Assembly (NCBI GenBank): GCA_016234205.1
Contig: JACRGN010000300.1
Span: 1-57,607 of the forward strand
Reading direction: 5' to 3'
Source: Nitrospinota bacterium
GTDB lineage: Bacteria; Nitrospinota; Nitrospinia; UBA9942
Length of the DNA stretch: 57,607 nucleotides
Both the position numbers and the translations under genes were made by a program. Shown here piece after piece: positions 20,860-57,607 of the stretch. The number at the start of each line of letters is the position of its first letter. Position 1 is the first letter of the stretch. The notes beneath the pieces were generated by a model that was given only the letters and a program-made list of their open reading frames with translations, was not told the origin of the DNA and did not search any database.

Positions 20860-21163
20860 GGACACAGATGGACACAGAAAATCAGGATACTTAAATACAG
20901 GAACACGAATTACACGAATAGACGAATAGCACGAATAAAAACTAATTTAGGAAATTCAATATTAGAGATTGCTTCGCCTTCGGCTCGCAATGACATGCAA
21001 GTCAAAGTGTCATTGCGAGGGGCGAAGCCCCGAAGCAATCTAATTTATTTTTTGCTTTATTAATTTGTGTAATTCGTCCATTCGTGTCATTCGTGTTCAA
21101 GTCTTTTGTTTTTTTTGGTTGCGGCTTTGCAACGCTGTGTGTATCTGTGAAAATCTGTGTCCC
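20860..21163. repeat. Triple-nested palindromic element (ctgtg arms > cacgaat arms > cattgcgag core)
   Basis: Outer 20860-20885 / 21136-21163; middle 20901-20937 / 21066-21098; core 20965-21042 gattgcttcgccttcggctcgcaatgac...gtcattgcgaggggcgaagccccgaagcaatc. Confidence 0.9.
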
Positions 21164-23870: not shown

Positions 23871-24524
23871 ATGGTTGAGATTATCCTTGTCATAATAGCA
23901 AGTTATCTTATCGGCTCTATATCACCAAGCATAATCCTCGGAAAAATATTAAAAGGGATAGATATTCGTGAACATGGCAGTGGTAATGCAGGCTCAACGA
24001 ATGCCTTTAGAGTTCTTGGCAAATGGGCAGGTATAACAGTCCTCCTATTGGATATTTTTAAGGGCTATTTTGCAGTTAAGTTTATAAGCCCTCTATCAGG
24101 AGAAAATCCAGTCATAGTAAGCTTGCCGAATCTATCCCCTACCCTTGTCGCCATCCTATCAGGTTTTGCAGCCATTATAGGGCATGTATGGACACTCTTT
24201 CATTCATTTAAGGGTGGAAAGGGGGTAAATACTGCAACAGGGGTTCTTTTAGCATTGATTCCAATACCAACTATTTTGGCTGCAGGCATCTTTTTAATTG
24301 TGCTACTCACAACAAGATATGTATCCCTTGGCTCAATGCTTGCCTCTCTATCACTCCCAATAATATTGATAATAATGTCATTGCGAGCCAAAGGCGAAGC
24401 AATCCCTTCGGAGCTGATTATATTTGCGGCTATCATCCCCATCTTTATTATCTATACACACAGAGCAAATATAAAGAGACTGATGAGAGGAGAAGAGAAT
24501 AAAATAAAATTAGGCAGGGGTTAA
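23871..24524 (+). CDS. plsY: Glycerol-3-phosphate acyltransferase PlsY
   Basis: YLIGSISPS, GSGNAGSTN, HVWTLFHSFKGGKGV, HRANIKRL motifs. Confidence 0.92.
   Translation: MVEIILVIIASYLIGSISPSIILGKILKGIDIREHGSGNAGSTNAFRVLGKWAGITVLLLDIFKGYFAVKFISPLSGENPVIVSLPNLSPTLVAILSGFAAIIGHVWTLFHSFKGGKGVNTATGVLLALIPIPTILAAGIFLIVLLTTRYVSLGSMLASLSLPIILIIMSLRAKGEAIPSELIIFAAIIPIFIIYTHRANIKRLMRGEENKIKLGRG
24377..24406. repeat. Half 'cattgcgag' repeat unit in-frame inside plsY
   Basis: gtcattgcgagccaaaggcgaagcaatccc, translated SLRAKGEAIP; same family as the 20965-21042 core. Confidence 0.7.
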
Positions 24525-41983: not shown

Positions 41984-42247
41984 ATGTTTGGAATAGGGAT
42001 GCCAGAGTTGATAGTAATACTTATCATTGCAATTGTGATAATCGGTCCTGATAAGCTTCCTGAGATTGCAAGGGCACTTGGGAGAGGTTATGCAGAATTT
42101 CAGAAGACCCTGAAAAATGTAAAGAACACTATTGACAGGGCTGAGTCCGACTTTGAAAGGACATCCAACATGGAAGAGAAGGGAGGTATTGGAAGTGGAG
42201 AGAGGGCAGGAGATGAAGAAAAAGAAGATCAGAAAAGTCACCTCTGA
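41984..42247 (+). CDS. tatA: Twin-arginine translocase TatA/TatB-family protein
   Basis: [31 protein letters not shown]-terminus; GGGAGA RBS. Confidence 0.87.
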   Translation: MFGIGMPELIVILIIAIVIIGPDKLPEIARALGRGYAEFQKTLKNVKNTIDRAESDFERTSNMEEKGGIGSGERAGDEEKEDQKSHL

Positions 42248-42980
42248 AGAAAAACTCCCTTTTACTGAGCATTTAGAGGAACTCAGATGGAGATTGATTA
42301 TCATAATAGCTACAATTGCCGTGTGGTTTGGAATATGCTACACATATTCGGAAGATATTATAAGGTTTGTCCAGAAGCCGTTAAATCAGAAACTTATATT
42401 CATAAGTCCTACTGAGGCTTTCTTCGTAAATTTAAAGGCTTCATTTTTTGGAGCAATCTTCCTATCCATCCCTGTAATAATTTATGAACTATGGGGGTTT
42501 GTATCTCCAGGATTACTTGAAAAGGAAAAAAAATATACGCTTCCTTTTATAATCTCTGCTACAGTATGCTTTATTATTGGTGTTGCTTTTTCATATTTTA
42601 TTGCCCTGCCGGTTATTATGAAATTTATGTTGGGTTTTGCAGGAGAAAAGCTTAGACCTATGATTTCAATAGATAACTACATTTCCTTTGTTGGAAGGTT
42701 TATGATAGGCTCTGGCGTCATATTTGAATTTCCTGTTGTTATCTTTTTTTTAAGTAAGATAGGCATAGCAACACCAGAATTTCTTTCCCAGAAAAGGGGA
42801 TATGCCATACTGGGAATATTTATCCTTTCTGCAGTCCTTACACCTCCTGATATATTTACCATGTTTCTTATGGCAATTCCTTTAATGGCTCTGTATGAAA
42901 TAAGCATAATTATAGCCCGATTATTTGGAAAGCGGGTTGATATGTCAGCAGTTGGCAGTCAGCTTAAGGCTAAAAGCTAA
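42213..42980 (+). CDS. tatC: Twin-arginine translocase subunit TatC
   Basis: [15 protein letters not shown]-terminus, six TM helices; ATG 42213 overlaps the end of tatA. Confidence 0.9.
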
Positions 42981-47020: not shown

Positions 47021-48352
47021 TCATTTCAGTTTAATCTCTTTTTTCCACAATAGATAGCTTGATTCACTACTATTTTTCCGAGCCTGTTCAATCTCCTTTC
47101 TTTTTATTCCAATGTTATCCCCTTTTAACATATTGCTAAAAAATTCATTATAAAACTTATCAGAATAGACCCAGACCTCAAATACGAGTTTGTCGCCACT
47201 GAGCTTAGATTGCTTCGTCGCTTCGCTCCTCGCAATGACACTTTTGCTTTTTCTGTCATTGCGAGCCGAAGGCGAAGCAATCTCAATATTGGGGTTATAA
47301 TCAAACTCAAAGCTCTTCTGCGGTGCAATCCTTGTATCAAAAATCTCTGTATCGAGGTCAAGATTTACCTTCCTGCCTATAAATGATTCCTTTTCGGAAG
47401 AGTGAATAGTTTTACCCTTCTTATCCATCATAAATCCCTTTACAATAACTAATGGGGTAACATAGGTAGGGAAGAAATGTCCAACACCACTATTAGTGAT
47501 AACAAGTTTTGCCCCTTTCGTATTTGGAATCACCTCAATACTGATTCCACCTCTAACCATCTCAGGGTCGTGGATACCTTTCCAGAGATGTTGTCTATCA
47601 GGCATATGACAACTCTGACAGGTTATGTCATTTTCCCCATAGAAACTATCCTTCCATTCCCTGTATGTATTTGTAAGGACCTTGCCATTTAATTCGTATC
47701 CTTCATCCATCTGGTGACATGCCGCACAGAATTCAGCCTTTTCAAAAAAATCCTCCTCTATAAAGCCATTGTGAGGTATTTGCCTTTCACTTCTGTCTTC
47801 TGTCCCTTCGGCTTTGCTCAGGGCAGGCTTCTGTCTTCTGTCTTCTGTTCTTGGAGGCGGCCCATATACTTTCCCCTCCCTCAAATGACAAACACTACAA
47901 CTGACTCCTGAAAGCTTAAGTTTGTTATCAAAAAATTGGTTTTTAATGTAGTTACTTGCCCCTTGCCCTTCCCCCTTAATAAAGGGGGATTGAGGGGGTT
48001 GTCCCCTTGCCTCTGTCTTTACTTCTGATTGTTCCATCATAGGTGCATGACAATAATAACATGATACTGCAGTTTCAGAGTCATTATGAGGGTCAATCTG
48101 ACTCAAAAGCCCGGGTCCTACCGCTTTACTATGGAGAGACCCCTTCCAGCCTTTGTATTGTTCCTTATGACATTCTCCACAGTCTTCAGGGTGGAAAGAC
48201 AATGAAAGTTCGGAGTTGGAATTTGGAATTTGCAAAGGGATGGGTCTTTCCCAATATTCTGATGAAGATAAAAATTCCTCTCCCCCATTTGCATCGGAGG
48301 AGAGGATTATCAGACTACAACTTATAAAAACAAGAGCTATTTTTTTCCGCAC
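47021..48352 (-). CDS. Periplasmic pentahaem cytochrome c carrying three in-frame repeat inserts
   Basis: Five CxxCH motifs (CGECH, CYYCH, CSVCH, CAACH, CQSCH); GTG 48352 gives signal peptide MRKKIALVFISCSLIILS and overlaps the upstream gene end. Confidence 0.8.
   Translation of the reverse strand: MRKKIALVFISCSLIILSSDANGGEEFLSSSEYWERPIPLQIPNSNSELSLSFHPEDCGECHKEQYKGWKGSLHSKAVGPGLLSQIDPHNDSETAVSCYYCHAPMMEQSEVKTEARGQPPQSPFIKGEGQGASNYIKNQFFDNKLKLSGVSCSVCHLREGKVYGPPPRTEDRRQKPALSKAEGTEDRSERQIPHNGFIEEDFFEKAEFCAACHQMDEGYELNGKVLTNTYREWKDSFYGENDITCQSCHMPDRQHLWKGIHDPEMVRGGISIEVIPNTKGAKLVITNSGVGHFFPTYVTPLVIVKGFMMDKKGKTIHSSEKESFIGRKVNLDLDTEIFDTRIAPQKSFEFDYNPNIEIASPSARNDRKSKSVIARSEATKQSKLSGDKLVFEVWVYSDKFYNEFFSNMLKGDNIGIKRKEIEQARKNSSESSYLLWKKEIKLK
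47208..47283. repeat. Complete 'cattgcgag' palindrome in-frame in the cytochrome gene
   Basis: gattgcttcgtcgcttcgctcctcgcaatgac...gtcattgcgagccgaaggcgaagcaatc, translated IEIASPSARNDRKSKSVIARSEATKQSKL. Confidence 0.85.
47788..47850. repeat. 'cttctgt' word repeat in-frame in the cytochrome gene
   Basis: cacttctgtcttctgtcccttcggctttgctcagggcaggcttctgtcttctgtcttctgttc, translated TEDRRQKPALSKAEGTEDRSE. Confidence 0.75.
47957..48010. repeat. 'PLxKGG' palindrome in-frame in the cytochrome gene
   Basis: tgccccttgcccttcccccttaataaagggggattgagggggttgtcccctt, translated RGQPPQSPFIKGEGQG. Confidence 0.85.
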
Positions 48353-48867
48353 GGATTTTTCATCCCGCAAGGGTGCTTCATACCGCACGGATGTTTCATT
48401 CCGCAGGGGTGCTTCCCAAGATGTGCTTTCAATATTTCCGACTTCTGTATCATCTCGTTTTTGGGGGCGAGCTTTTGAGCCATCTCAAAGTGTTTGGCAG
48501 CTTCTTCATGTTTACCCTGTTTGTCCAGAGAAAGTGCCAGATTATAGTGTGCCTCAGCAAAATTAGGGTCTGCTTTCACAGCATCTGCAAAATGTTTTGC
48601 CGCAACATCCCAATGTCCCTCTTTAAAATGGCTTATACCATCTACATTGAAATGACATGCCTCTGGTTTTACATCCTTCGGACATACAAGGGCGCCAGCA
48701 ACACCGCATGGATTCTTCATCCCGCAGGGATTTTTAGCACCACAGGGATTCTTTGCTGCACATGGGTTTTTGCCGCAGGGATTCTTTTCCTTTGCCTGAA
48801 CATCACTAAAACCCCATGATACAATCAATGATACCGCCAATAAAACCCTTAAAATCATCTTATACAT
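48337..48867 (-). CDS. Secreted TPR protein flanked by KNPCG / KHPCG heptad Cys repeats
   Basis: ATG 48867 with GGAGG RBS; signal peptide; N-terminal KNPCGKNPCAAKNPCGAKNPCGMKNPCG; central TPR (AEAHYNLALSLDKQGKHEEA); C-terminal KHPCGMKHPCGMKHPCGMKNPCGKK. Confidence 0.72.
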   Translation of the reverse strand: MYKMILRVLLAVSLIVSWGFSDVQAKEKNPCGKNPCAAKNPCGAKNPCGMKNPCGVAGALVCPKDVKPEACHFNVDGISHFKEGHWDVAAKHFADAVKADPNFAEAHYNLALSLDKQGKHEEAAKHFEMAQKLAPKNEMIQKSEILKAHLGKHPCGMKHPCGMKHPCGMKNPCGKK

Positions 48868-49174
48868 ATTTTCCTCCCTCAATAAAAGTGTCAGTAACAG
48901 TTTACACCTTAATTCATAATTCATAATTCATAATTCTTAATTCTTTTTTCTCACCCCCCTTCCTTTTAGGTATTAGGTAGTTAGGTTAAAACCTATAACC
49001 TATATCCTATCACAGCTTAAATTGACAGACCATATCCTACAGCACACCTGCCTGCTGATTTAGATTCCCTGCAACTTCCGAAAATTATGGCTCGTTCAGG
49101 GAACGATACTTACAGTAGCCCCCGTTCCCCGAACACACCACATTGAAATTCCCTGTACATAATTCCACGAAAAC

Positions 49175-49999
49175 TTACTTAATTCCAATAAACTTCTCTT
49201 TCACAACTGCCTGGCCTTCTGCAGATACAACCCAGTCAATAAAATCCTTAACCTCCCCATTAGGTTCACCCTTTGTGATTAGATAGAGGGGACGCGAAAT
49301 GGGATAGCCGTTGTTATTTGTTACTGGAATCTGGCCATTAACCCTGATTTTTGTAACGGATTTGTTTCCTCCTATGATGGCTAAACTCAACTGCCCGATT
49401 CCACCTTTATCGGATGAGACCTTATCTATAATAGCCGGGTCGGGCCTGACAGTTTCTATATTTTTCCCGCTATAATCTTCCCCTCCGAGCACAATCTTGG
49501 CAAAAACCTTTCTGGTTGCGGATTGAGGGTTGACTATATAAACTGTAACGGGAAGATCTGGTCCGCCAACATCTTTCCAGTTTGTAATCTTGCCTGTAAA
49601 GATTCCTTTTAATTGAGCAAAGGAGAGGTCTGATACTGGATTGGCGGGGTTTACCAGAACTCCTATAGCATCCCTTCCTATTAAAACCTCTTTCACCCCT
49701 TTTGCAAGTATCTCAGGTTTTACATCCCTCGCAACTCCACCAATATCGGCTTTTCCTACTACAGTGGCATTTTCCCCGCCGTCGCTTTCAGGCGCTGTGT
49801 CTATCTTGAAAGTGGACTTATTATACACCTTTGCAGCATCTTTTATAAATTCGCCGACAGTTGACGAACCCACATAAGTAATTTCTCCTGCAAGAACAAG
49901 GGAAGGCACTGCAATAAACAAAACCGCTAAAAAAACTATACACAATTCCCCGATTAAAACTTTCGGGGACAGGCTTGATGAATTAATCTTTTTTTTCAT
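49175..49999 (-). CDS. Periplasmic PstS-like (PBP_like_2) anion-binding protein
   Basis: Signal anchor, GSSTVGEF, RPDPAII..GGIG, NGYPISRPLY motifs of phosphate-binding-protein family. Confidence 0.72.
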   Translation of the reverse strand: MKKKINSSSLSPKVLIGELCIVFLAVLFIAVPSLVLAGEITYVGSSTVGEFIKDAAKVYNKSTFKIDTAPESDGGENATVVGKADIGGVARDVKPEILAKGVKEVLIGRDAIGVLVNPANPVSDLSFAQLKGIFTGKITNWKDVGGPDLPVTVYIVNPQSATRKVFAKIVLGGEDYSGKNIETVRPDPAIIDKVSSDKGGIGQLSLAIIGGNKSVTKIRVNGQIPVTNNNGYPISRPLYLITKGEPNGEVKDFIDWVVSAEGQAVVKEKFIGIK

Positions 50000-50152
50000 A
50001 ACAACCCCCTTTATCCCCCTTTATTAAGGGGGATAAACTCTCAGCAGGTCTAAAGACCTATCTCTACAGCATAAACAACCCTTCTCTCTCCCCTCCCCAC
50101 TATTGGGGATAGAAATACATTAAATGTACAAGGAATTTCACACATCACCTCC

Positions 50153-51646
50153 TTAAACTTTGAATTTTGAAAGCATCGTCTGCAGCTCTGATGCAAGTCT
50201 TGATAAATTGTTAGAGGCATCTGCTATATGATTGGAACTATTGGCAGTCTCCTTAGTTGTATTTGCTATATCCTGTATATCCTTGCTTATCTGGTCAATG
50301 GCTGCAGATTCTTCTTCCGATGCCGCTGCTATCTGCTGAATCATGCCTGTCAGCCTGTCTGCATTTGATACTATCTCCACCAGGGCGCCCCCTGCATCCT
50401 TTGTAAGCCTTACCTTGTCTTCTACTTCGGTGGTTACTACATCCATTGACATGACCGCCTTATTTGTCTCCTCCTGTATGGCATGTATCATCCCGCCGAT
50501 TTCCTTTGTCGCCTTTGTCGTCTTTTCTGCAAGCTTCCTGACTTCATCTGCTACTACTGCAAAACCACGGCCATGCTCACCTGCCCTTGCCGCCTCTATT
50601 GCTGCATTTAAGGCAAGGAGATTCGTCTGGTCTGCTATATCGTCTATTACCTTTATGATTTCCCCTATCTCGCCTGAACGGATGCCAAGCTTTTTTATAA
50701 GTGATGCCGATTCTTTCACTGCCCCTGTAATGTCATCCATCCCGCTAACTGTCTTTTCAACAATATCTTTGCCATTCTGTGCAATCTTGTTTGCATTCTT
50801 TGAAGCCTCCGATGCGCCTGATGCATTTTTGGCAACCTCAATAACTGTTGAGCTCATCTCTCCGGATGAGGATGCAACCTGAGCAGTCTTTTCTGTCTGA
50901 CTCTTAGCGCCCTTAGCAATCTGTACGGCTGATGCACTGAGATTTTCCGATGCCGATGCTACCTTTAATGCAGTCTGGCTGATCTGGACTATCATGTCAT
51001 GAACCTTTCCGATAAAGGTATTGAACCAGTTTGCCAGCTCTCCAATTTCATCCCTTGACATAGATGCTATCTTTTTCGTCAAATCCCCTTCACCTGAAGC
51101 AATATCCTTTAACATCTCTACAACCCTATTTATAGGAGAGGAGACAAAACGGTGGACAAGAAAGATAATTCCTATGATGAGTAAAATTGTGGATACTGCG
51201 ATAACGGAGACAACAGTAACAATACCCCTCTTTAACTCATCTGCAAGCTTTTCCTTGCTATACCCCATCTTCAAAAAACCTACCATTTTCCCAACATCAT
51301 TCTTTATCTCCCTTTCATAAATTAACAGTTGAGAGGTATCGGGAGGCTCCTTTACACTGTTGGTAATAGGCTGCCTTTTTTCGTCGTAAAACATGGTAAA
51401 CACCACCTCGGGGTCTTTGGCTGTCTCTTTGACAAATTTTTCCAGTGTGGAAAAATCAAAGCTTGCATAAAAGGTGGGGCTGATCTCTTTTAGCAGATTA
51501 GCCTGTGCATTTCCCTTTGAGGCCATACTATTGCCGATTGATACACTGCTGTTTCTGACCATGACTATTCCCATAGACACAAACAGGATGACCACGAGGA
51601 GCAGAGTAGGAATCAATAATTTTTTAGCAATTGAGTTAAAAAGCAT
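50153..51646 (-). CDS. Methyl-accepting chemotaxis protein (two TM, small periplasmic domain, HAMP, MA domain)
   Basis: [38 protein letters not shown] signalling-hairpin signature. Confidence 0.93.
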
Positions 51647-51672
51647 ATTTTAATGTTTCAATAAGTCCCCCC

Positions 51673-52263
51673 TCACCCCTCCCTCTCCCCTGTGGGGAGA
51701 GGAGGGTTAGTGTAAAGGGTTAATTGCACCATCTTTAACCTCTCCAAATGCCCCTGACTATCACTATATAAACTGGCAATGACATCTTTCAAATCTGAAT
51801 CCTGTAGATGATGTAAGACACTAAATTTCTCTACTAATGTATCTTCTATCTCTGCAGCTACCTTTATTGCAGATGAAATGGAGAGGACTTCCTTATCAAT
51901 ACCGGCATGCAAGCTATTTAACTTCTGCAGCAAAACTTTTAGTGTTTCTATATCCAAACACTCAGGCAATAAGAATAATTCTCTGTGTCTATCTGATAAT
52001 AATCCTAATGCCATGATAATTTTTGCATGTCTAATCTCATCTCCTGCCATTCCTGCCCATAAGGAGGCAATATCTTCATCACTCATAAATCTTCCATGAA
52101 ACGACAGATATATCTCTGCTGTCTTCAGCTCTATTTCAAAGAATAGATTCAGGATATTATCCAGTTCATCCGACACAATTTTATGAAGAAAAAAACCTAT
52201 AAAACCACAGAAGATGGACACGGATAAATAAAATAATGGGACACAGAGTTCACAGATGGACAC
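51673..52263 (-). CDS. Hypothetical helical protein with a weak ferritin/rubrerythrin-like ExxH motif (start uncertain; both ends run into repeats)
   Basis: GDEIRHAK motif; N-terminal ~25 aa and C-terminal NPPLPTGEREG are encoded by repeat DNA. Confidence 0.4.
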   Translation of the reverse strand: MSICELCVPLFYLSVSIFCGFIGFFLHKIVSDELDNILNLFFEIELKTAEIYLSFHGRFMSDEDIASLWAGMAGDEIRHAKIIMALGLLSDRHRELFLLPECLDIETLKVLLQKLNSLHAGIDKEVLSISSAIKVAAEIEDTLVEKFSVLHHLQDSDLKDVIASLYSDSQGHLERLKMVQLTLYTNPPLPTGEREG

Positions 52264-52358
52264 GGATAAATAAAATTAAAATTCTTTATCCTGATTTTTC
52301 TGTGTTTATCTGTGTCCAAATTTATTTCTTATCTCTGTGTTCTCTGTGAACTCTGTGG
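52204..52358. repeat. ctgtg-word inverted repeat followed by an orphan TTTTATAATTTCC box (52364-52376)
   Basis: accacagaagatggacacggataaat...gggacacagagttcacagatggacacggat ... ctgtgtttatctgtgtcc...ctctgtgttctctgtgaactctgtgg. Confidence 0.8.
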
Positions 52359-52375
52359 CAAATTTTTATAATTTC

Positions 52376-52564
52376 CTAAAAAGAATCACCCTCTATCTTA
52401 GTTATAGTTATTTCCGATGGCGTTTTATACCCTGTAATTGCCTGATGTAGTTTAGATTTATCTTCAGCAGAAAGAACCCTTGCCGCTTCAAAATACTTTT
52501 CTATTTGGACATTCTTATCCATTAAACCTTCAAGATATATTCTGGCTGCCTCTTCTCTGGTCAT
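52376..52564 (-). CDS. Hypothetical 62-aa protein
   Basis: ORF only. Confidence 0.3.
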   Translation of the reverse strand: MTREEAARIYLEGLMDKNVQIEKYFEAARVLSAEDKSKLHQAITGYKTPSEITITKIEGDSF

Positions 52565-52580
52565 GATAATGTAATTATAT

Positions 52581-52695
52581 ATCCGCAGATTTCGCAGATT
52601 ATCGCAGATTTTTTAAGATATTGTTTCATTGTTTCATGGTTTTAACAATGGAACAATGTGTATATTAATCTGTGTAATCTGTGTAATCTGCGGAT
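52581..52695. repeat. Nested element: cgcagat/atctg arms around a ttgtttcat/aacaatg hairpin
   Basis: atccgcagatttcgcagattatcgcagatt ... ttgtttcattgtttcatgg...aacaatggaacaatg ... aatctgtgtaatctgtgtaatctgcggat. Confidence 0.85.
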
Positions 52696-52698
52696 TAA

Positions 52699-54324
52699 TC
52701 AAACCTTTGTTCCATTGATCTTCCTTACAAGCAAGACCTCTCCAAACCCCAACCCTATAATACCAAGAAAGGTGTAGAGATAGACTTTTGATGGAACAGG
52801 TGTTTCCATAATGACATAATGCCATGAGGAAAGGCTCATAAGCTTACCATGCTCACCATTGGAACCGTCCCATACATTAAGGGAGAATGGGATGAACTTC
52901 CCCTTTTTAAACTGGATATCCCCTTCATCTTTTGTCAGGAGGGGTCTTTTCATAATAACCTTCCATACCCCGCCGCTATACACACCCTTCCCTTTAACAT
53001 CCTGTAATGCCTGAATCTCAAGGGGTTCATCAGGACCCACTGCATTTGTATCTTCAACGGCAGGTTTTCCCTCCTCTTGCAAATCGGCTTTCCAAATCCA
53101 TAGATTCACAGGGTTACTGCTATCCCCCCTGAAAAAGTGGGGCTTTTCTGTCCCCTCCTGTAACTCTACAGGAAACTGAAGCGCTATGGAATCCCTGAAG
53201 GTCTCCAGCTTTCCGGGGACCATCTTAACGGGGTTTACATAGGAGTTATAACTGGCCGTTCCAAGTAAGGGTGTGACATCTGCCTCCATCTCCTTCTTAT
53301 GAAGGACATCCTTGAACGGGTCATCCCACTCTATAAGGAAGGCTATCTCATTTTCATTATACAGCGCCCTCACTGTTGCCATATCTACACTGTGGTTCTG
53401 CCAGCGGGGGGCAGCAATAACACTTCCCCCCAGCCTTATATCTATATAAGACGCCTTTTGCCACTCAGGGCTATTCACATCTTCAGGTAAATCACCTTTA
53501 ACAGGCACAGCCTTCAATACCTGCTCCTCCCTGGGGTTCTTCTGGAGTGATTTTATAAAGTTAGCCAGATGCCAGCGCTCTTCCTCTTTCAGGGTATCAA
53601 TAAAAGAGGGCATTGGTGTGCCGTTGATACCTGTAGAAAATCTCATGAATATATCCTCTGGCTCTGAACCTGCCTTTATCTTCCATGGCTGGGTTACATT
53701 CCTGATACGGATTGGGAAACCCCAGTCATCCTTTTTGTCTAATGTCTTCTGCCCATCACCCTTGCCGCCCTTTCCATGACATTCCCAGCACTTTGCCCTT
53801 TCAAAAATCTCCTTACCTTTTGCAACACTCTCCTCTGAGTATGGTATCTTCTGCATTGATGGGGTTACAATCTTTTTGTAAGGGTCCAGCTCCGGGTTGG
53901 AGAACTCCTGGGCAAAGGTTTGAATATAGTATATGACCTGCCACCTCTCCTCCTCTGTCAACCCATTTTTGATAACCTCATTGTCAAATGCCTGCATTGC
54001 TGTCCCCTTCAACCCACGGCTGATGGTCCTGAAGAGGTTCTCATCTATTGGGAGCTCGCCGCTCTGTGTGGTTCTGAATTTAAATGTCCCCGGGGTAAAG
54101 TCCCTTGGACGGGGAGACAAAAATTGCGCCGCAGGACCATTACCATCACCAAGGAGTCCATGACAGAAGCTGCATCTTTTAAAAAATGTGAGCTTACCCT
54201 TTTCTATTGCCTCAGGAGTCTTTGGAAGTTTGGGTTTGGTAGGTGTATCCCCGGCATAAGCCACAGTAAGCAGTGAGCAGTAAACAGTAAGCAGTAAAAC
54301 ACAAGACAAAAAAACTCTTTTCAT
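52699..54324 (-). CDS. Dihaem cytochrome c fused to an EB_dh (ethylbenzene-dehydrogenase gamma / NxrC-like haem-binding) domain
   Basis: ATG 54324 with GGGAGGG RBS; signal peptide; CSFCHG and CWECHG; C-terminal domain with IAFLIEWDD, DSIALQFP, NLWIWKA, FSLNVWDGSNGEHG pattern. Confidence 0.8.
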   Translation of the reverse strand: MKRVFLSCVLLLTVYCSLLTVAYAGDTPTKPKLPKTPEAIEKGKLTFFKRCSFCHGLLGDGNGPAAQFLSPRPRDFTPGTFKFRTTQSGELPIDENLFRTISRGLKGTAMQAFDNEVIKNGLTEEERWQVIYYIQTFAQEFSNPELDPYKKIVTPSMQKIPYSEESVAKGKEIFERAKCWECHGKGGKGDGQKTLDKKDDWGFPIRIRNVTQPWKIKAGSEPEDIFMRFSTGINGTPMPSFIDTLKEEERWHLANFIKSLQKNPREEQVLKAVPVKGDLPEDVNSPEWQKASYIDIRLGGSVIAAPRWQNHSVDMATVRALYNENEIAFLIEWDDPFKDVLHKKEMEADVTPLLGTASYNSYVNPVKMVPGKLETFRDSIALQFPVELQEGTEKPHFFRGDSSNPVNLWIWKADLQEEGKPAVEDTNAVGPDEPLEIQALQDVKGKGVYSGGVWKVIMKRPLLTKDEGDIQFKKGKFIPFSLNVWDGSNGEHGKLMSLSSWHYVIMETPVPSKVYLYTFLGIIGLGFGEVLLVRKINGTKV

Positions 54325-54340
54325 TATTCCCTCCCTTTTA

Positions 54341-54403
54341 AGCAATGAGCAACGAGCAACGAGTTTTTTTTTACTCATTGCTTTTCACTCATTTCTCATT
54401 GCT
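54341..54403. repeat. 'gcaatgag/ctcattgc' inverted word repeat
   Basis: agcaatgagcaacgagcaacgag-T9-actcattgcttttcactcatttctcattgct. Confidence 0.8.
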
Positions 54404-54544
54404 ATTTTTTTACATCCCTGCCTTTTCTTTCACTTCATCCATTATCTTTAAAGTAATTTCTTTTGCATAGCTAACAATAGATTGTCTCGCCATGGACTGC
54501 ACAAATGCTGGTATTCTTTTAAATCTCTCCTCTGCCTCATTTGT

Positions 54545-54763
54545 TCATGTAATATCTTCTCCAAACGATTTAGTTGGTTTTATATCAACACCAATATTCA
54601 ATCCCAATGTCTTAACCATCTGTGTCTCCTGTGGATTTGTAATCATTGCAATTTGATTGTTACATTTTGAACAGCTAAATATAATATCTACAGAATCTCC
54701 TTTGGAATCATCTGTATTCATAAGCTTCATGTATTCATTACATCTGATACATAGAAATTTCAT
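54545..54763 (-). CDS. Small zinc-ribbon-like protein (CxxC...CxxC)
   Basis: 72 aa; CIRC and CSKC pairs 25 aa apart; sits between two cytochrome genes. Confidence 0.45.
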   Translation of the reverse strand: MKFLCIRCNEYMKLMNTDDSKGDSVDIIFSCSKCNNQIAMITNPQETQMVKTLGLNIGVDIKPTKSFGEDIT

Positions 54764-54874
54764 AATCTTTATCCCCTACTTTGCCTCATGCTTCTCTGTG
54801 AGAACTCTGCCCTTGACTATGATTATCAATCATTGTCATAGGGCTCTGTGGTTTTATTTAATGCATTTTTTGGG

Positions 54875-55885
54875 TTAATATTTCTTTTCCTCATGTTTCT
54901 CTGGCTCCCTCGGACCCTTTTGGGCAAGGTCATATTCAGCCAGAATTATCCTCCACCTGTATTCCTCTGGTAAATCGGTCTTCCATACAGGCATTGCAGA
55001 GTCCCATGGGGTTGCCTCTACCGGCAAACCCCGTCCCCCCTCTGTAACCCTCCAGAAGGTGTATCCCTCTACGATGGTGTCAATGGTACCGGTGTCTGTA
55101 AAGTTTATGGGTCTCAGCTTAAAACCATCAGCCATTGGTCCATCCCCTGCAGTGCTATCGCCGTGGCAGGGTCTGCAGTTCATTGCAAAGAGGGCACGAC
55201 CCTCAAAGAGGTATTTCTCAATAAGCGCTGCCCTTCCCCTCTCCCTGCTTATATTCCCTGTTTTAAGCTCTTTCAAAAGGGTCTGCACCGGCTCGGTAGG
55301 GATAAATCCAAGGATATGACTATCAGGGTTCTTCCCCTTCCACCTTTCCACATCTTCCTTTACCTGAGGGATAAACTCCACATGGCTTGATTTAACCTCT
55401 TCTATAAACTTATCCACATCGGCATCCGCTGGATTCCTTAATGGATTCTTCAATGTCTCATTCGCCTTTGGAAAGTTGCTGGATGGATGCTGAATCCTGA
55501 GGGCAGTGGGGGTGCTGACCTTTGGCGCCGTAGAGCTGTATATATTGAAGCCAAATATTAACGGTATAATGGTCAGTGTAATCAGTCGTGTCTTATTACC
55601 ATACTCCCCTTTTAATAATTTCAGTATCGGGGCTAAAAACTCCTGCAGTCTTACTTCTGATGATGTTATGTATATGAACATAACTATTGTTGTTAATACC
55701 ATGAAGATTATCATCAATGCCCCAGGGACAGGAAAGGGGAACCCCATGCCTGTTATCTTCCTCGTCACGAATGGTATACCCATTTTGACTATTAGATAGA
55801 TGATGATAATGGTTATAACTGTGCTGATAAATTGACCTGTCCCCTGTTTAAAGCTTACAGGGGCAAGCTTTTTTTCTTTGTTCAT
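54875..55885 (-). CDS. Membrane-anchored monohaem cytochrome c
   Basis: Three N-terminal TM helices; CRPCHG; downstream SAMPVW Met-ligand region. Confidence 0.75.
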   Translation of the reverse strand: MNKEKKLAPVSFKQGTGQFISTVITIIIIYLIVKMGIPFVTRKITGMGFPFPVPGALMIIFMVLTTIVMFIYITSSEVRLQEFLAPILKLLKGEYGNKTRLITLTIIPLIFGFNIYSSTAPKVSTPTALRIQHPSSNFPKANETLKNPLRNPADADVDKFIEEVKSSHVEFIPQVKEDVERWKGKNPDSHILGFIPTEPVQTLLKELKTGNISRERGRAALIEKYLFEGRALFAMNCRPCHGDSTAGDGPMADGFKLRPINFTDTGTIDTIVEGYTFWRVTEGGRGLPVEATPWDSAMPVWKTDLPEEYRWRIILAEYDLAQKGPREPEKHEEKKY

Positions 55886-55901
55886 CTCTCCTCCTTTTTC
55901 T

Positions 55902-56606
55902 TTACTTCTTCTTCAATTCAAAAGCCACCTTATTCTCCCCATCTTTTACTGTGATGTCCTTTATCTGCTCACCCAATGTCTCATGCCAGACCTTTATCTT
56001 GTATGTCCCTGCCGGCACATCGGAAATCTTAAAAGAGCCTGCATCATCACTTATAGCTACATATTGATTATCCGTAACTATGAAAAAGGCGCTCATCCAT
56101 TCGTGGACATCGCATTTAATCGGAACGATCTCAGGATATTTAAATAATTCTTTACCGAGGGTCTTCACCTTCTGCGTGCCAGGCTGACCGGCATTATACG
56201 ACTCATTCTCTATGGTAAAGGAGTGGAAATTGTGCATGAGACCATCATTATTGTAGAGATCCAGCTTTGATTCTAATGGAATTACTACAACATGGGGCTT
56301 GAACTGACAGGTATCCTGCTCAAATTTGATTGCCACTGGAGAGGGTGATGTCTTCTTCGCGGCGCCCTCAATGAAGATAATGGCATTTTTCAAGCCCTTG
56401 TCCTTACCAACAATAAGGTTCTCCTTGAACTTTGGCTTCTTACCGCACACATCGGGGTCCTTTGTTATGTTTATCTTCTCAGGTGCGGGAGGGGCGCCTG
56501 CAAACTTCACATCCCCTTTAACCACACCTGCAGAGAATACAGGGGATACCCCGGAATACAGAATACAGAATACAGAACACAGAACAATCGAAATACATCT
56601 TCTCAT
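55902..56606 (-). CDS. Periplasmic cupredoxin-like protein (type-1 Cu ligand pattern) + C-terminal CarboxypepD_reg-like beta-sandwich
   Basis: Signal peptide; LYNNDGLMHNFH and C-DV-H-EW-M (C-x2-H-x2-M as in amicyanin); C-terminal GSFKISDVPAGTYKIKVWHE. Confidence 0.62.
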   Translation of the reverse strand: MRRCISIVLCSVFCILYSGVSPVFSAGVVKGDVKFAGAPPAPEKINITKDPDVCGKKPKFKENLIVGKDKGLKNAIIFIEGAAKKTSPSPVAIKFEQDTCQFKPHVVVIPLESKLDLYNNDGLMHNFHSFTIENESYNAGQPGTQKVKTLGKELFKYPEIVPIKCDVHEWMSAFFIVTDNQYVAISDDAGSFKISDVPAGTYKIKVWHETLGEQIKDITVKDGENKVAFELKKK

Positions 56607-56673
56607 TTTTTCTCCTTTCGTTTTTGAAATTTAGCCACCGATTTACTCAGACTTTTTAAGCCATTTAAACCGT

Positions 56674-57607
56674 TTAAACTGTTTGAACCGTTTTTAATGA
56701 GTCAGTTGCCTCTGCTTCATCTTCCTCCTTTTCTTTTGTAGAAAATTGTGCCAGCCAGAATACAAAGACGACCATCATCATAAAGATGAATGTGGTAAGA
56801 GAGATTATCTTTGCGGCAAATCCAAAGGGCATGGTAAAGGCATCAGGGGAGTAATCCCTCATCACAGTATAGACATGCCAGTGTTGTCTTACCCCTGACC
56901 TCACATACCCCATCAATCCCATAAGCCATGTAAAGGATACGGCAATCAGAAAGAGGAGATATTGGGACCTCCTGGGCATATCCCCCCATTCTATGGGACC
57001 CGCACTTTTAGCACGGCGATACATAAATCCATCCAAAAGACTGCCGATAACTATTACACTTAATGTGGTCGCAACCTGCGGGACAGAGAGCCCGATCCTG
57101 ATATTGGCAGGGAGAAAGTAACCATATACTCCTAAAGATATTATATTGACAGCGGCTGCGGTAAAGAGGGCTACCTGAATGATATTCCCCGTCTTTACCC
57201 ATGAGACCTGTGGTATTTTATTGCCTCTCCGATAGAGCATAAAGGACAGGAATGTAGTAACTATCATCAGGTTTACAGCAGTATTTTTTGCAGACATGAC
57301 ACCGAATACACCGACATATGGATGATGGGCGCTGCCCAGGGTCTTGAGCTCTTTACCGGTCATGATAATTGTGTGGGGTGTAAACCAGATAAGGAAGCAG
57401 CCTACCAGGACAATTGTCATGTATTTAATGAAGGGGAAGTATCTCTCAGCTCCCCTTATCCGTTCCATCCCTAACCATAGATAATAATTTATGCTGAGGA
57501 AGATAACACCAATCAAAAGTGCCTGGACGATAAATATCCAGGCGAATATCCCACCCATAAGAGTTATCCCCATCTGCTGACTGTATCCATATACCTCCTT
57601 CATCAGC
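56674..57607 (-). CDS. CydA-like (cytochrome bd subunit-I-like, 'bd-like oxidase') membrane protein, possibly truncated by window edge
   Basis: About 8 TM helices; GYVRSGVRQHWHVYTVMRD resembles the conserved CydA GRQPW loop; frame still open upstream of ATG 57603. Confidence 0.6.
   Translation of the reverse strand, partial: LMKEVYGYSQQMGITLMGGIFAWIFIVQALLIGVIFLSINYYLWLGMERIRGAERYFPFIKYMTIVLVGCFLIWFTPHTIIMTGKELKTLGSAHHPYVGVFGVMSAKNTAVNLMIVTTFLSFMLYRRGNKIPQVSWVKTGNIIQVALFTAAAVNIISLGVYGYFLPANIRIGLSVPQVATTLSVIVIGSLLDGFMYRRAKSAGPIEWGDMPRRSQYLLFLIAVSFTWLMGLMGYVRSGVRQHWHVYTVMRDYSPDAFTMPFGFAAKIISLTTFIFMMMVVFVFWLAQFSTKEKEEDEAEATDSLKTVQTV

Follow-up and report, generated by a model that had tools for sequence, protein, structure and literature searches.

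What kind of respiratory complex is encoded by a run of genes that brings together a bd-like membrane protein, a cupredoxin, membrane-bound cytochromes c and a haem b domain? The question is raised by one end of contig JACRGN010000300.1 from a Nitrospinota bacterium (assembly GCA_016234205.1); the entire contig of 57,607 bp was analysed and is called the window throughout. A first-pass annotation, made from the sequence alone, had placed five co-oriented minus-strand genes there, as is indeed the case, and had regarded them as an uncharacterised module assembled from parts not normally found in one operon. That last claim does not hold, as the same set has been described before (PMC3578206; PMC6606698; Murali et al., 2021) and its EB_dh protein has relatives in no fewer than 228 GTDB species. 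The region is very probably the 3′ end of a larger OR-N2-type bd-like cluster, as in Nitrospina, Nitrospira and Kuenenia, and the combination is a known, widespread and biochemically uncharacterised cluster type to which the window adds one further instance. As for its function, the best explanation overall, to which gene content and conserved residues give slightly better than an even chance, is that an OR-N2 cluster would encode a reductase fed by cytochrome c and cupredoxin and devoid of a quinol site, with O2 as the likeliest acceptor.

The OR-N family of bd-like proteins was defined by Murali, Gennis and Hemp (2021; bioRxiv 10.1101/2021.01.16.426971, ISME J 15:3534), and OR-N2 operons typically hold multiple cytochromes c together with an EbdC homologue (Murali et al., 2021). 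The literature on the gene set in Nitrospina, Nitrospira and Kuenenia dates from 2010–2013, and for these three genera a bd-like oxidase, cupredoxin, mono- and dihaem cytochromes c, zinc-finger protein and alternative NxrC have been listed (Lucker et al., 2013, PMC3578206). Nitrospira moscoviensis carries bd-like_3/4 and alt_NxrC_2 with two cytochromes c and a nearby duplicate, and by transcript level the homologous cluster of this organism ranks within the top 40 genes (Mundinger et al., 2019, PMC6606698). OR-N CydA is conserved across Nitrospinota according to comparative genomics (PMC10839748), and in work on Manganitrophaceae the equivalent complex has been named TO_1. The kinship with bd-like, NxrC-like and blue-copper clusters of Nitrospira and anammox bacteria, which the first-pass annotation had suspected, thus matches the published gene sets. 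With the OR-N2 subfamily the region shares the signature residues, the lack of cydB, the several cytochromes c with an EbdC homologue and the occurrence in Nitrospinota; it differs in that the window holds the C-terminal half of the bd-like protein only and in that the gene order is permuted relative to Proteobacteria. With the clusters of N. moscoviensis, N. gracilis and K. stuttgartiensis, whose "alternative NxrC" has two haem c motifs and one transmembrane helix, it shares the whole inventory by published descriptions, including the bdA/bdB duplication. Unlike the nxr clusters of N. gracilis and K. stuttgartiensis, it has no nxrABC nearby, either in the window or in the closest relatives.

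The bd-like subunit and the cluster beyond the contig end

The bd-like reading frame is open at the contig end, without an upstream stop codon. As the window is the whole contig it cannot be extended; an exact look-up of the cupredoxin protein and an exact DNA search of metagenome_contigs with the start of L086 gave no match, and the close relatives L083–L086 were used as proxies for the sequence past that end. L083, a 16.6-kb groundwater contig, is a good proxy because its DNA is 88–96% identical to the window over most of the overlap; its proteins are 91–98% identical. The window fragment is 98% identical to residues 317–615 of a 627-aa PF01654 protein of L083 and 82% identical to residues 334–636 of a 638-aa PF01654 protein of a further relative, L001, and genes at the same position in related contigs encode 627–740-aa proteins with PF01654. 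Pfam gives no PF01654 match for the 310-residue fragment alone, and its family profile, run against PDB sequences, matched CydA through the N-terminal columns of longer homologues only; the CydA kinship of the in-window half therefore rests on the full-length relatives. The loop that had been read as a diverged GRQPW type, "GVRQHW", is present in the fragment and conserved, and an alignment of "RQHW" with GRQPW appears in the comparison of the profile with PDB, where it is not significant by itself.

The residues that define OR-N2 proteins connect the fragment to this subfamily. In the reference TKS59798.1 these are H99, Y183, E190, Y197, Y199, H213, H269, M430/N434, S563 and W569 (Murali et al., 2021). 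The L083 protein has equivalents for all eleven signature residues (H93, Y173, E180, Y187, Y189, H203, H259, M420, N424, S553 and W559), offset by −10 throughout except for H93 at −6, and all are conserved in 98 bdA- and bdB-type sequences. The four that fall in the window are kept, M104, N108, S237 and W243 of the fragment corresponding to M430, N434, S563 and W569. Across the 98 sequences 192 positions are conserved, and the fragment retains all but one of the in-window positions conserved in both types. Compared with canonical CydA, the full-length L083 protein carries H93 at the His19 site, Y173 at E99, E180 at E107, H203 at H126 and H259 at H186, while Tyr and Ser stand in place of E. coli E99 and E445 and are conserved in bdA and bdB types alike. 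The L001 homologue aligns to Geobacillus CydA over helices 1–4 only (5doq_A, E 3.3e-10), with H110 on the active-site His21 and E197 on the channel Glu108, and the NCBIfam CydA equivalogs score 23–30 bits on this full-length protein against cutoffs of 968–1025. OR-N2 proteins have 14 transmembrane helices, some of them in place of the Q-loop (Murali et al., 2021); by a crude hydropathy scan the L001 homologue has 11 segments and the window fragment 6, and the AlphaFold2 (AF2) model of the fragment shows about 7–8 long helices. The likeness to CydAB(X) (5DOQ, 6RKO) covers the first four helices, the active-site His, one channel Glu, a further His, the His/Met pair of haem b558 and the GRQPW-like loop, whereas CydB is missing, the Q-loop and the quinol site are reported to be lost, the two glutamates are replaced and transmembrane helices are reported to be added. 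The partners in the window also differ, being periplasmic cytochromes c, a cupredoxin and an EB_dh protein, and the donor would presumably be a cytochrome c or copper protein rather than quinol.

The five reading frames are separated by 67, 16, 111 and 166 nt, and the boundaries of the operon are left undefined because consensus scans for promoters and terminators over 49000–57607 gave chance-level hits only. No cydB adjoins the cluster in the window, as had been stated, nor does one lie upstream in L083, L084 or L086. Upstream of the bd-like gene in L083 come two EB_dh genes, the first of which encodes 513 aa, and between them genes for a 258-aa cytochrome c and a 191-aa protein; L086 reaches further and includes a second bd-like gene, encoding 740 aa, and one more cytochrome c gene. 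By analogy with L083 and L086, the full cluster would read bdA, cytochrome c, EB_dh, small protein, cytochrome c, EB_dh, bdB, cupredoxin, cytochrome c, Zn-ribbon/PCP_red and EB_dh, and the window would begin in the second half of bdB.

Periplasmic partners and the truncated Zn-ribbon gene

The cupredoxin is recognised by structure and by its ligands. No cupredoxin model of Pfam or NCBIfam matches the 234-aa protein, and Pfam reports fn3_3/CarboxypepD_reg at residues 166–226 only. When its AF2 model (pLDDT, the predicted local distance difference test score, 89) was compared with PDB by Foldseek, 38 matches at E ≤ 1e-3 were obtained, all of them cupredoxin domains, including the CuA domain, amicyanin, pseudoazurin and plastocyanin, with template-modelling scores (target) up to 0.78. 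Homologues numbered 79, some of which are labelled "plastocyanin" in JGI records, and in 26 aligned homologues (29–91% identity) H125, C165, H168 and M171 are invariant, as are C54, C100 and N126. The protein is accordingly predicted, from model and alignment, to be a type-1 copper cupredoxin with the ligand set H125/C165/H168/M171, and the periplasmic cupredoxin with a C-x2-H-x2-M site of the first-pass annotation stands, enlarged by an extra domain. It resembles amicyanin, pseudoazurin and plastocyanin in fold and in the H...C-x2-H-x2-M pattern, the spacing of the ligand loop being amicyanin-like, and differs from them in a C-terminal CarboxypepD_reg-like beta-sandwich (about residues 179–234), in the invariant Cys54/Cys100 pair and in the missing Pfam cupredoxin match. 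An N-terminal hydrophobic segment spans residues 5–23.

The 336-aa cytochrome c is as the first-pass annotation had it, with three N-terminal hydrophobic helices and one CxxCH at residue 237 in hydropathy and motif scans, and with Pfam Cytochrome_CBB3 at residues 228–314; it is a class-I cytochrome c domain on the periplasmic side. Its identity is 97% to the L083 protein, 84% to that of L001 and 55–68% to the proteobacterial counterparts. Among the carriers, the CxxCH motifs are invariant.

The protein that fuses two c-haem motifs to an EB_dh domain was likewise recovered. As a 559-aa reading frame it matches EB_dh (PF09459) with 80.5 bits (E 2.6e-22, cutoff 33.3) and two cytochrome c domains in Pfam, and has CxxCH at residues 69 and 197, a signal or anchor helix at 22–40 and a C-terminal transmembrane helix at 532–550. 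Translation probably begins at M19, since the annotated NCBI form (P0001), which is 100% identical, has 541 aa. The N-terminal dihaem part matches 6h5l_B in PDB with E 1.3e-53, residues 38–262 of the 541-aa form aligning over the whole of that dihaem protein. From the entry description and the paper (PMC8042395) we infer 6H5L chain B to be Kustc0457, the dihaem partner that lengthens the circuit of haems in Kustc0458, an octahaem HAO-like nitrite reductase (PMC8042395). The window module is homologous to it over its full length, and differs in being fused to EB_dh, anchored in the membrane and without an adjoining HAO-like gene.

The C-terminal part matches NXR-C (7b04_C, E 1.5e-12) and EbdC (2ivf_C, E 2.6e-7), with which it shares the EB_dh fold and domain; unlike EbdC and NXR-C, the window protein adds the fused dihaem cytochrome c and the C-terminal transmembrane anchor, and its gene has no adjoining genes for an alpha subunit, with its molybdenum bis(pyranopterin guanine dinucleotide) cofactor (Mo-bisPGD), or a beta (FeS) subunit. 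EbdC M108 and K201 are what we take to be the Met/Lys axial ligands of haem b. NXR-C has an inserted Met at the position of the former and Lys at that of the latter, and the paralogous EB_dh proteins of the same clusters mostly have Met and His there, as do many proteins of ebdhB/C type (loci in Table 1). In the ebdhA-type orthologue group H414, H510 and M514 are invariant. Binding of haem b by the EB_dh domain with different ligation is plausible from these alignments, and the differences among paralogues suggest that the EB_dh subunits within one cluster, two or three in number, differ in haem ligation and perhaps in potential. A bona fide EbdC/NxrC gamma subunit was ruled out by TIGR03477 (104.5 bits, below the cutoff of 169.85), by the differing ligands and by the lack of alpha and beta genes.

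The remaining gene had been reported as a 72-aa CxxC...CxxC peptide. That reading frame, with its two CxxC pairs, is real; it is not the complete gene. At the same position L083 encodes 134 aa, a Zn-ribbon followed by PCP_red (PF08369), and a tblastn search with this protein gave 63% identity over its full length in one frame of the window, with a stop at codon 73. An in-frame TGA (...ATT ACA TGA ACA AAT GAG...) stands where relatives keep Trp (TGG), and with Trp restored the read-through sequence matches PF08369 at 36.6 bits against a cutoff of 32.5. The 72-aa frame, which has 276 relatives mostly of 100–200 aa, is therefore the first domain of a truncated Zn-ribbon + PCP_red gene whose two domains are still recognisable at the sequence level. 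The TGA is a nonsense mutation, a base-call or consensus error, or the mark of a split gene; its reading as Trp was ruled out, since TGA ends the EB_dh gene in the same contig. The protein has no signal peptide and is probably cytoplasmic. PCP_red recurs near the clusters (Table 1) in several architectures, namely Zn-ribbon + PCP_red, Usp + 4xPCP_red, radical-SAM/SPASM (NirJ2/AhbD-like, below cutoffs) + PCP_red and one 945-aa EB_dh-protein fusion, which hints at a role in cofactor maturation or regulation.

Distribution, molybdoenzyme neighbours and other features of the window

The EB_dh fusion has more than 2000 database relatives of 57–84% identity. The 80 best loci all come from uncultured metagenome-assembled genomes (MAGs), assigned to marine Rhodospirillaceae, Acidiferrobacteraceae, Arenicellales and other Proteobacteria, and also labelled Deltaproteobacteria, Nitrospirae, Nitrospinae and others. 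The genes for the bd-like protein, cytochrome c and EB_dh protein are syntenic in 80 genome loci and 80 metagenome loci, wherever the contig is long enough. The typical order is a cupredoxin-like gene, bdA (about 730 aa), cytochrome c, membrane cytochrome c, EB_dh(A), FixO-like cytochrome c, bdB (about 610 aa), small protein, membrane cytochrome c and EB_dh(B), often followed by Usp + PCP_red and radical-SAM (NirJ/AhbD-like) + PCP_red genes; in the window lineage the inventory is unchanged and the order permuted (bdB, cupredoxin, cytochrome c, Zn-ribbon, EB_dh).

The absence of a molybdopterin catalytic subunit, claimed by the first-pass annotation, was upheld among the ten window reading frames of about 400 aa or more that were scanned for a Mo-bisPGD subunit, and the available parts of the closest relatives L083, L086, L138, L087 and L079 contain none either. 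The molybdenum cofactor (Moco) genes that it had mentioned are present, the window encoding MoaA, MoaC/MoaB, MoaD-like, MoaE and MoeA; TatC and one of its two TatA copies were confirmed as well. Beside tatA lies a 246-aa membrane protein, which is a TauE/SafE-family exporter and not TatC. In most proteobacterial relatives and some others the double bd-like module does have molybdoenzyme neighbours directly upstream: Rieske, AioA-like and HEAT genes precede bdA in 38 of the 46 genome loci with enough upstream sequence, and in the metagenome loci L091–L093 and L134. The AioA-like subunit scores 403 bits with TIGR02693 (cutoff 359), the HEAT-repeat protein is roughly 750 aa long, and di-haem cytochrome c peroxidase (CCP) genes stand upstream of the Rieske and AioA-like genes in the loci examined (two in L102, at least one in L002). 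By the published criterion, applied to gene order and sequence, such peroxidase–Rieske–Mo neighbours have the idrP1P2BA signature of iodate reductase; the iodate-reduction paper has no mention of a "cytochrome bd" or "terminal oxidase" neighbour.

Downstream of the EB_dh gene in the window lie genes for a 62-aa protein (no Pfam match, 87% identical to its L083 counterpart), a weak rubrerythrin-like protein, a methyl-accepting chemotaxis protein and a PBP_like_2 periplasmic binding protein. That these genes are syntenic with L083, and in part with L001, may point to a functional or regulatory link with the module, e.g., aerotaxis. Further along, a TPR protein bears tandem "KNPCG(A/M)" peptide repeats at both ends, and between its gene and tatA a 455-aa multihaem cytochrome c with c554/MtrC-like Pfam matches is encoded. 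A palindromic repeat of roughly 80–88 nt (AGATTGCTTCG...CGCAATGACA / TGTCATTGCGAG...AAGCAATCT) occurs two to three times in the window, once within the multihaem cytochrome reading frame, towards its 3′ end, and looks like a small mobile element similar to miniature inverted-repeat transposable elements (MITE-like). In L083–L085 a copy occupies the bd–cupredoxin spacer, where the window has none.

Table 1. Positions of the cluster genes, of loci used for comparison and of other features (window coordinates unless a locus is named).
Feature	Position	Strand	Basis
OR-N2-type bd-like (CydA-homologous) membrane subunit, C-terminal 310 codons	56674..57607	-	homology to full-length PF01654 relatives
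Predicted secreted cupredoxin with C-terminal CarboxypepD_reg-like beta-sandwich, 234 aa	55902..56606	-	AF2/Foldseek, conserved ligands
Membrane-anchored monohaem cytochrome c, 336 aa	54875..55885	-	Pfam Cytochrome_CBB3, CxxCH
Zn-ribbon + PCP_red (PF08369) gene, TGA-interrupted	54410..54763	-	tblastn, PF08369 on read-through
72-aa reading frame	54545-54763	-	motif scan
In-frame TGA	54545-54547	-	TGG (Trp) in relatives
Dihaem cytochrome c–EB_dh fusion ("alternative NxrC"), 559-aa reading frame	52699..54378	-	PF09459, two cytochrome c domains
Probable start (M19) of the EB_dh fusion	54324	-	annotated form of 541 aa
EB_dh paralogues compared for ligands	52699-54324; L083:2982-4523; L086:3387-4802; L002:16830-18380		
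bd-like module directly downstream of the AioA-like set	L102:686-9800; L002:1-5888; L004:3-5375; L091:4243-9890		
PCP_red (PF08369) near clusters	L072:18404-20485; L074:16425-17640; L004:12179-13450; P0046		
Genes downstream of the cluster	49175-52564	-	synteny with L083, partly with L001
TPR protein	48337-48924	-	
Multihaem cytochrome c, 455 aa	47021-48388	-	c554/MtrC-like Pfam matches
Palindromic repeat	47205-47291; 20965-21043; 24376-24404 (partial); L083:6408-6495		
TauE/SafE-family exporter, 246 aa	46003-46743	-	
TatC	42132-42980	+	PF00902, E 1e-72

Proposed function and its rivals

That the complex would be a periplasm-fed, quinol-independent terminal reductase, most likely for O2, is the proposal of the literature, and we give it an even chance; a cytochrome c-dependent O2 reductase was missing from the options of the first-pass annotation. 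Quinol independence is suggested because the His, Glu and His/Met haem environment is kept and cydB, E99 and E445 are absent, and the Q-loop and all quinol-binding residues are reported to be lost in OR-N (Murali et al., 2021; PMC3578206). Feeding from the periplasm is suggested because the partners would be exclusively periplasmic high-potential carriers, i.e., c-haems, type 1 copper and the EB_dh haem. Electrons from periplasmic carriers or dehydrogenases would enter through high-potential periplasmic centres, namely the EB_dh fusion with its two c-haems and a presumed b-haem, the tethered monohaem cytochrome c and the type-1 copper protein. They would then pass to the bd-like subunit, which appears to keep the b558 His/Met pair, the high-spin haem His and one proton-channel Glu and to lack both a quinol-binding Q-loop and a CydB partner. 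There O2, or a related small oxidant, would be reduced with protons from the cytoplasm, and the charge separation would build a membrane potential. The Zn-ribbon/PCP_red protein would more likely be an assembly or regulatory factor than an electron carrier. Cofactor occupancy, the direction of electron flow, the substrate and the formation of a complex are all points that we infer.

Several observations weigh against such a terminal reductase. About 316 N-terminal codons of the bd-like gene, with the His and Glu residues of the haem site, fall past the contig end, and hence the catalytic N-terminal half is outside the window. The AF2 model of the fragment (pLDDT 76) retrieved nothing significant from PDB by Foldseek (best E 0.19) and no CydA, a null result that is uninformative rather than contradictory. 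The replacement of E99 and E445 may mean that the di-haem active site differs from the canonical one. In the EB_dh protein of the window, R417 aligns with EbdC M108 and M514 with K201, and the canonical Met/Lys pair is absent. The cluster also occurs in strictly anaerobic anammox bacteria (PMC3578206), and in Proteobacteria its neighbours are Idr-like reductase genes, a setting in which electrons would move outward, towards a reductase. Finally, we found no biochemical or structural study of any OR-N enzyme in the literature, none having been purified or assayed, which bears out the earlier remark that biochemistry has yet to establish the function; as of 2025, neither the O2 affinity nor the subunit composition of OR-N was stated to be established.

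The anammox occurrence, the Idr-like adjacency and the replaced glutamates are the reasons for keeping rival explanations open. The foremost, which we consider rather unlikely, is a quinone-coupled complex like alternative complex III, in which the bd-like subunit would meet the quinone pool at a new site and would serve either cytochrome c/Cu:quinone reverse transport or, as a quinol:cytochrome c oxidoreductase, the feeding of periplasmic reductases. Such coupling has been proposed for nitrite oxidisers (PMC3578206; PMC6606698). It would suit the anaerobic anammox hosts (PMC3578206) as well as the oxygen-minimum-zone Proteobacteria, whose cluster lies directly downstream of CCP-CCP-Rieske-Mo genes and whose iodate reductase needs an electron supply. 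It is opposed by the reported loss of the Q-loop and the quinol-binding residues and by the lack in the cluster of any NrfD/PsrC-like or cytochrome b-type subunit with a quinone site, and it gives no reason for the conservation of His, Glu and His in the O2-reducing half. The quinol:cytochrome c/Cu complex suggested by the first-pass annotation belongs to this rival and draws no support from a recognisable quinol site.

Its other suggestion, a membrane anchor for a molybdoenzyme, gains context from the Aio/Idr-type enzymes of other lineages and nothing from the window itself. In its full form this explanation, to our judgement distinctly improbable, holds that the module would exclusively serve a single periplasmic molybdoenzyme (NXR or one of Aio/Idr type, with its genes elsewhere in the genome), docking it to the membrane and drawing off its electrons, and that the EB_dh protein would stand in as alternative gamma subunit. 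The homology of the EB_dh domain to NXR-C and EbdC, the published name "alternative NxrC" (PMC3578206; PMC6606698), the Rieske, AioA-like and HEAT genes beside bdA and the full Moco-biosynthesis set with Tat genes in the window all speak for it. However, neither the scanned window reading frames nor the available parts of the closest relatives contain a Mo subunit, and TIGR03477 stays below its cutoff with the canonical haem ligands absent. That the module is found with two unrelated Mo-enzyme families, and also by itself, speaks for a general-purpose role; in Nitrospira, transcription of alt_NxrC is several-fold lower than that of the NXR subunits (PMC6606698), and non-Nitrospinia Nitrospinota are reported by comparative genomics to be without NXR.

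A reductase for another small oxidant (NO, H2O2 or reactive halogen species), serving detoxification, seems more improbable still. Canonical bd oxidases are published to handle NO and H2O2, di-haem peroxidase and Idr-like genes neighbour the cluster in Proteobacteria, the rubrerythrin-like gene lies just downstream in the window, L083 and L084, and NO is an intermediate in the anammox bacteria that carry the cluster (PMC3578206). The very high transcription in nitrite-grown Nitrospira, which has no haem-copper oxidases, fits a main respiratory role better (PMC6606698). An ordinary cydAB quinol oxidase operon continuing past the contig end, a notion fostered by the PF01654 matches of the full-length relatives and their frequent automatic annotation as "cytochrome ubiquinol oxidase subunit I", can be dismissed with near certainty in view of the EB_dh and cytochrome c genes upstream in L083, L084 and L086, the homology to solved CydA structures over helices 1–4 only, the replaced E99/E445 and the CydA scores of 23–30 bits against cutoffs near 1000. 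The outcomes named beforehand as damaging to the first-pass module were looked for, and what was found is PF01654 in the full-length relatives, preserved synteny and no canonical cydAB upstream.

Returning to the terminal reductase, a bolder version can be put forward only tentatively. The OR-N2 module would be self-contained and not bound to one donor, so that lineages could plug in NXR, as in nitrite oxidisers and anammox bacteria, or Idr/Aio-like enzymes, as in oxygen-minimum-zone Proteobacteria. In iodate reducers it would consume O2 or oxidants arising from iodate reduction, and as a stand-alone unit in Nitrospinota that probably do not oxidise nitrite it would be the main high-affinity oxidase. 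In this version the recurrent PCP_red and NirJ/AhbD-like radical-SAM neighbours hint at a dedicated, possibly modified, haem cofactor.

In Nitrospira and Nitrospina, the makers of much of the nitrate in ocean and soil, the main terminal oxidases are presumed to be OR-N bd-like complexes. The module is far more widespread than the literature on nitrite oxidisers suggests, most of its hosts being uncultured marine and groundwater Proteobacteria. It is not bound to NXR, and many lineages carry it in physical linkage with iodate-reductase- or arsenite-oxidase-like genes. This wider host range offers more organisms and conditions in which the function of the module can be tested.

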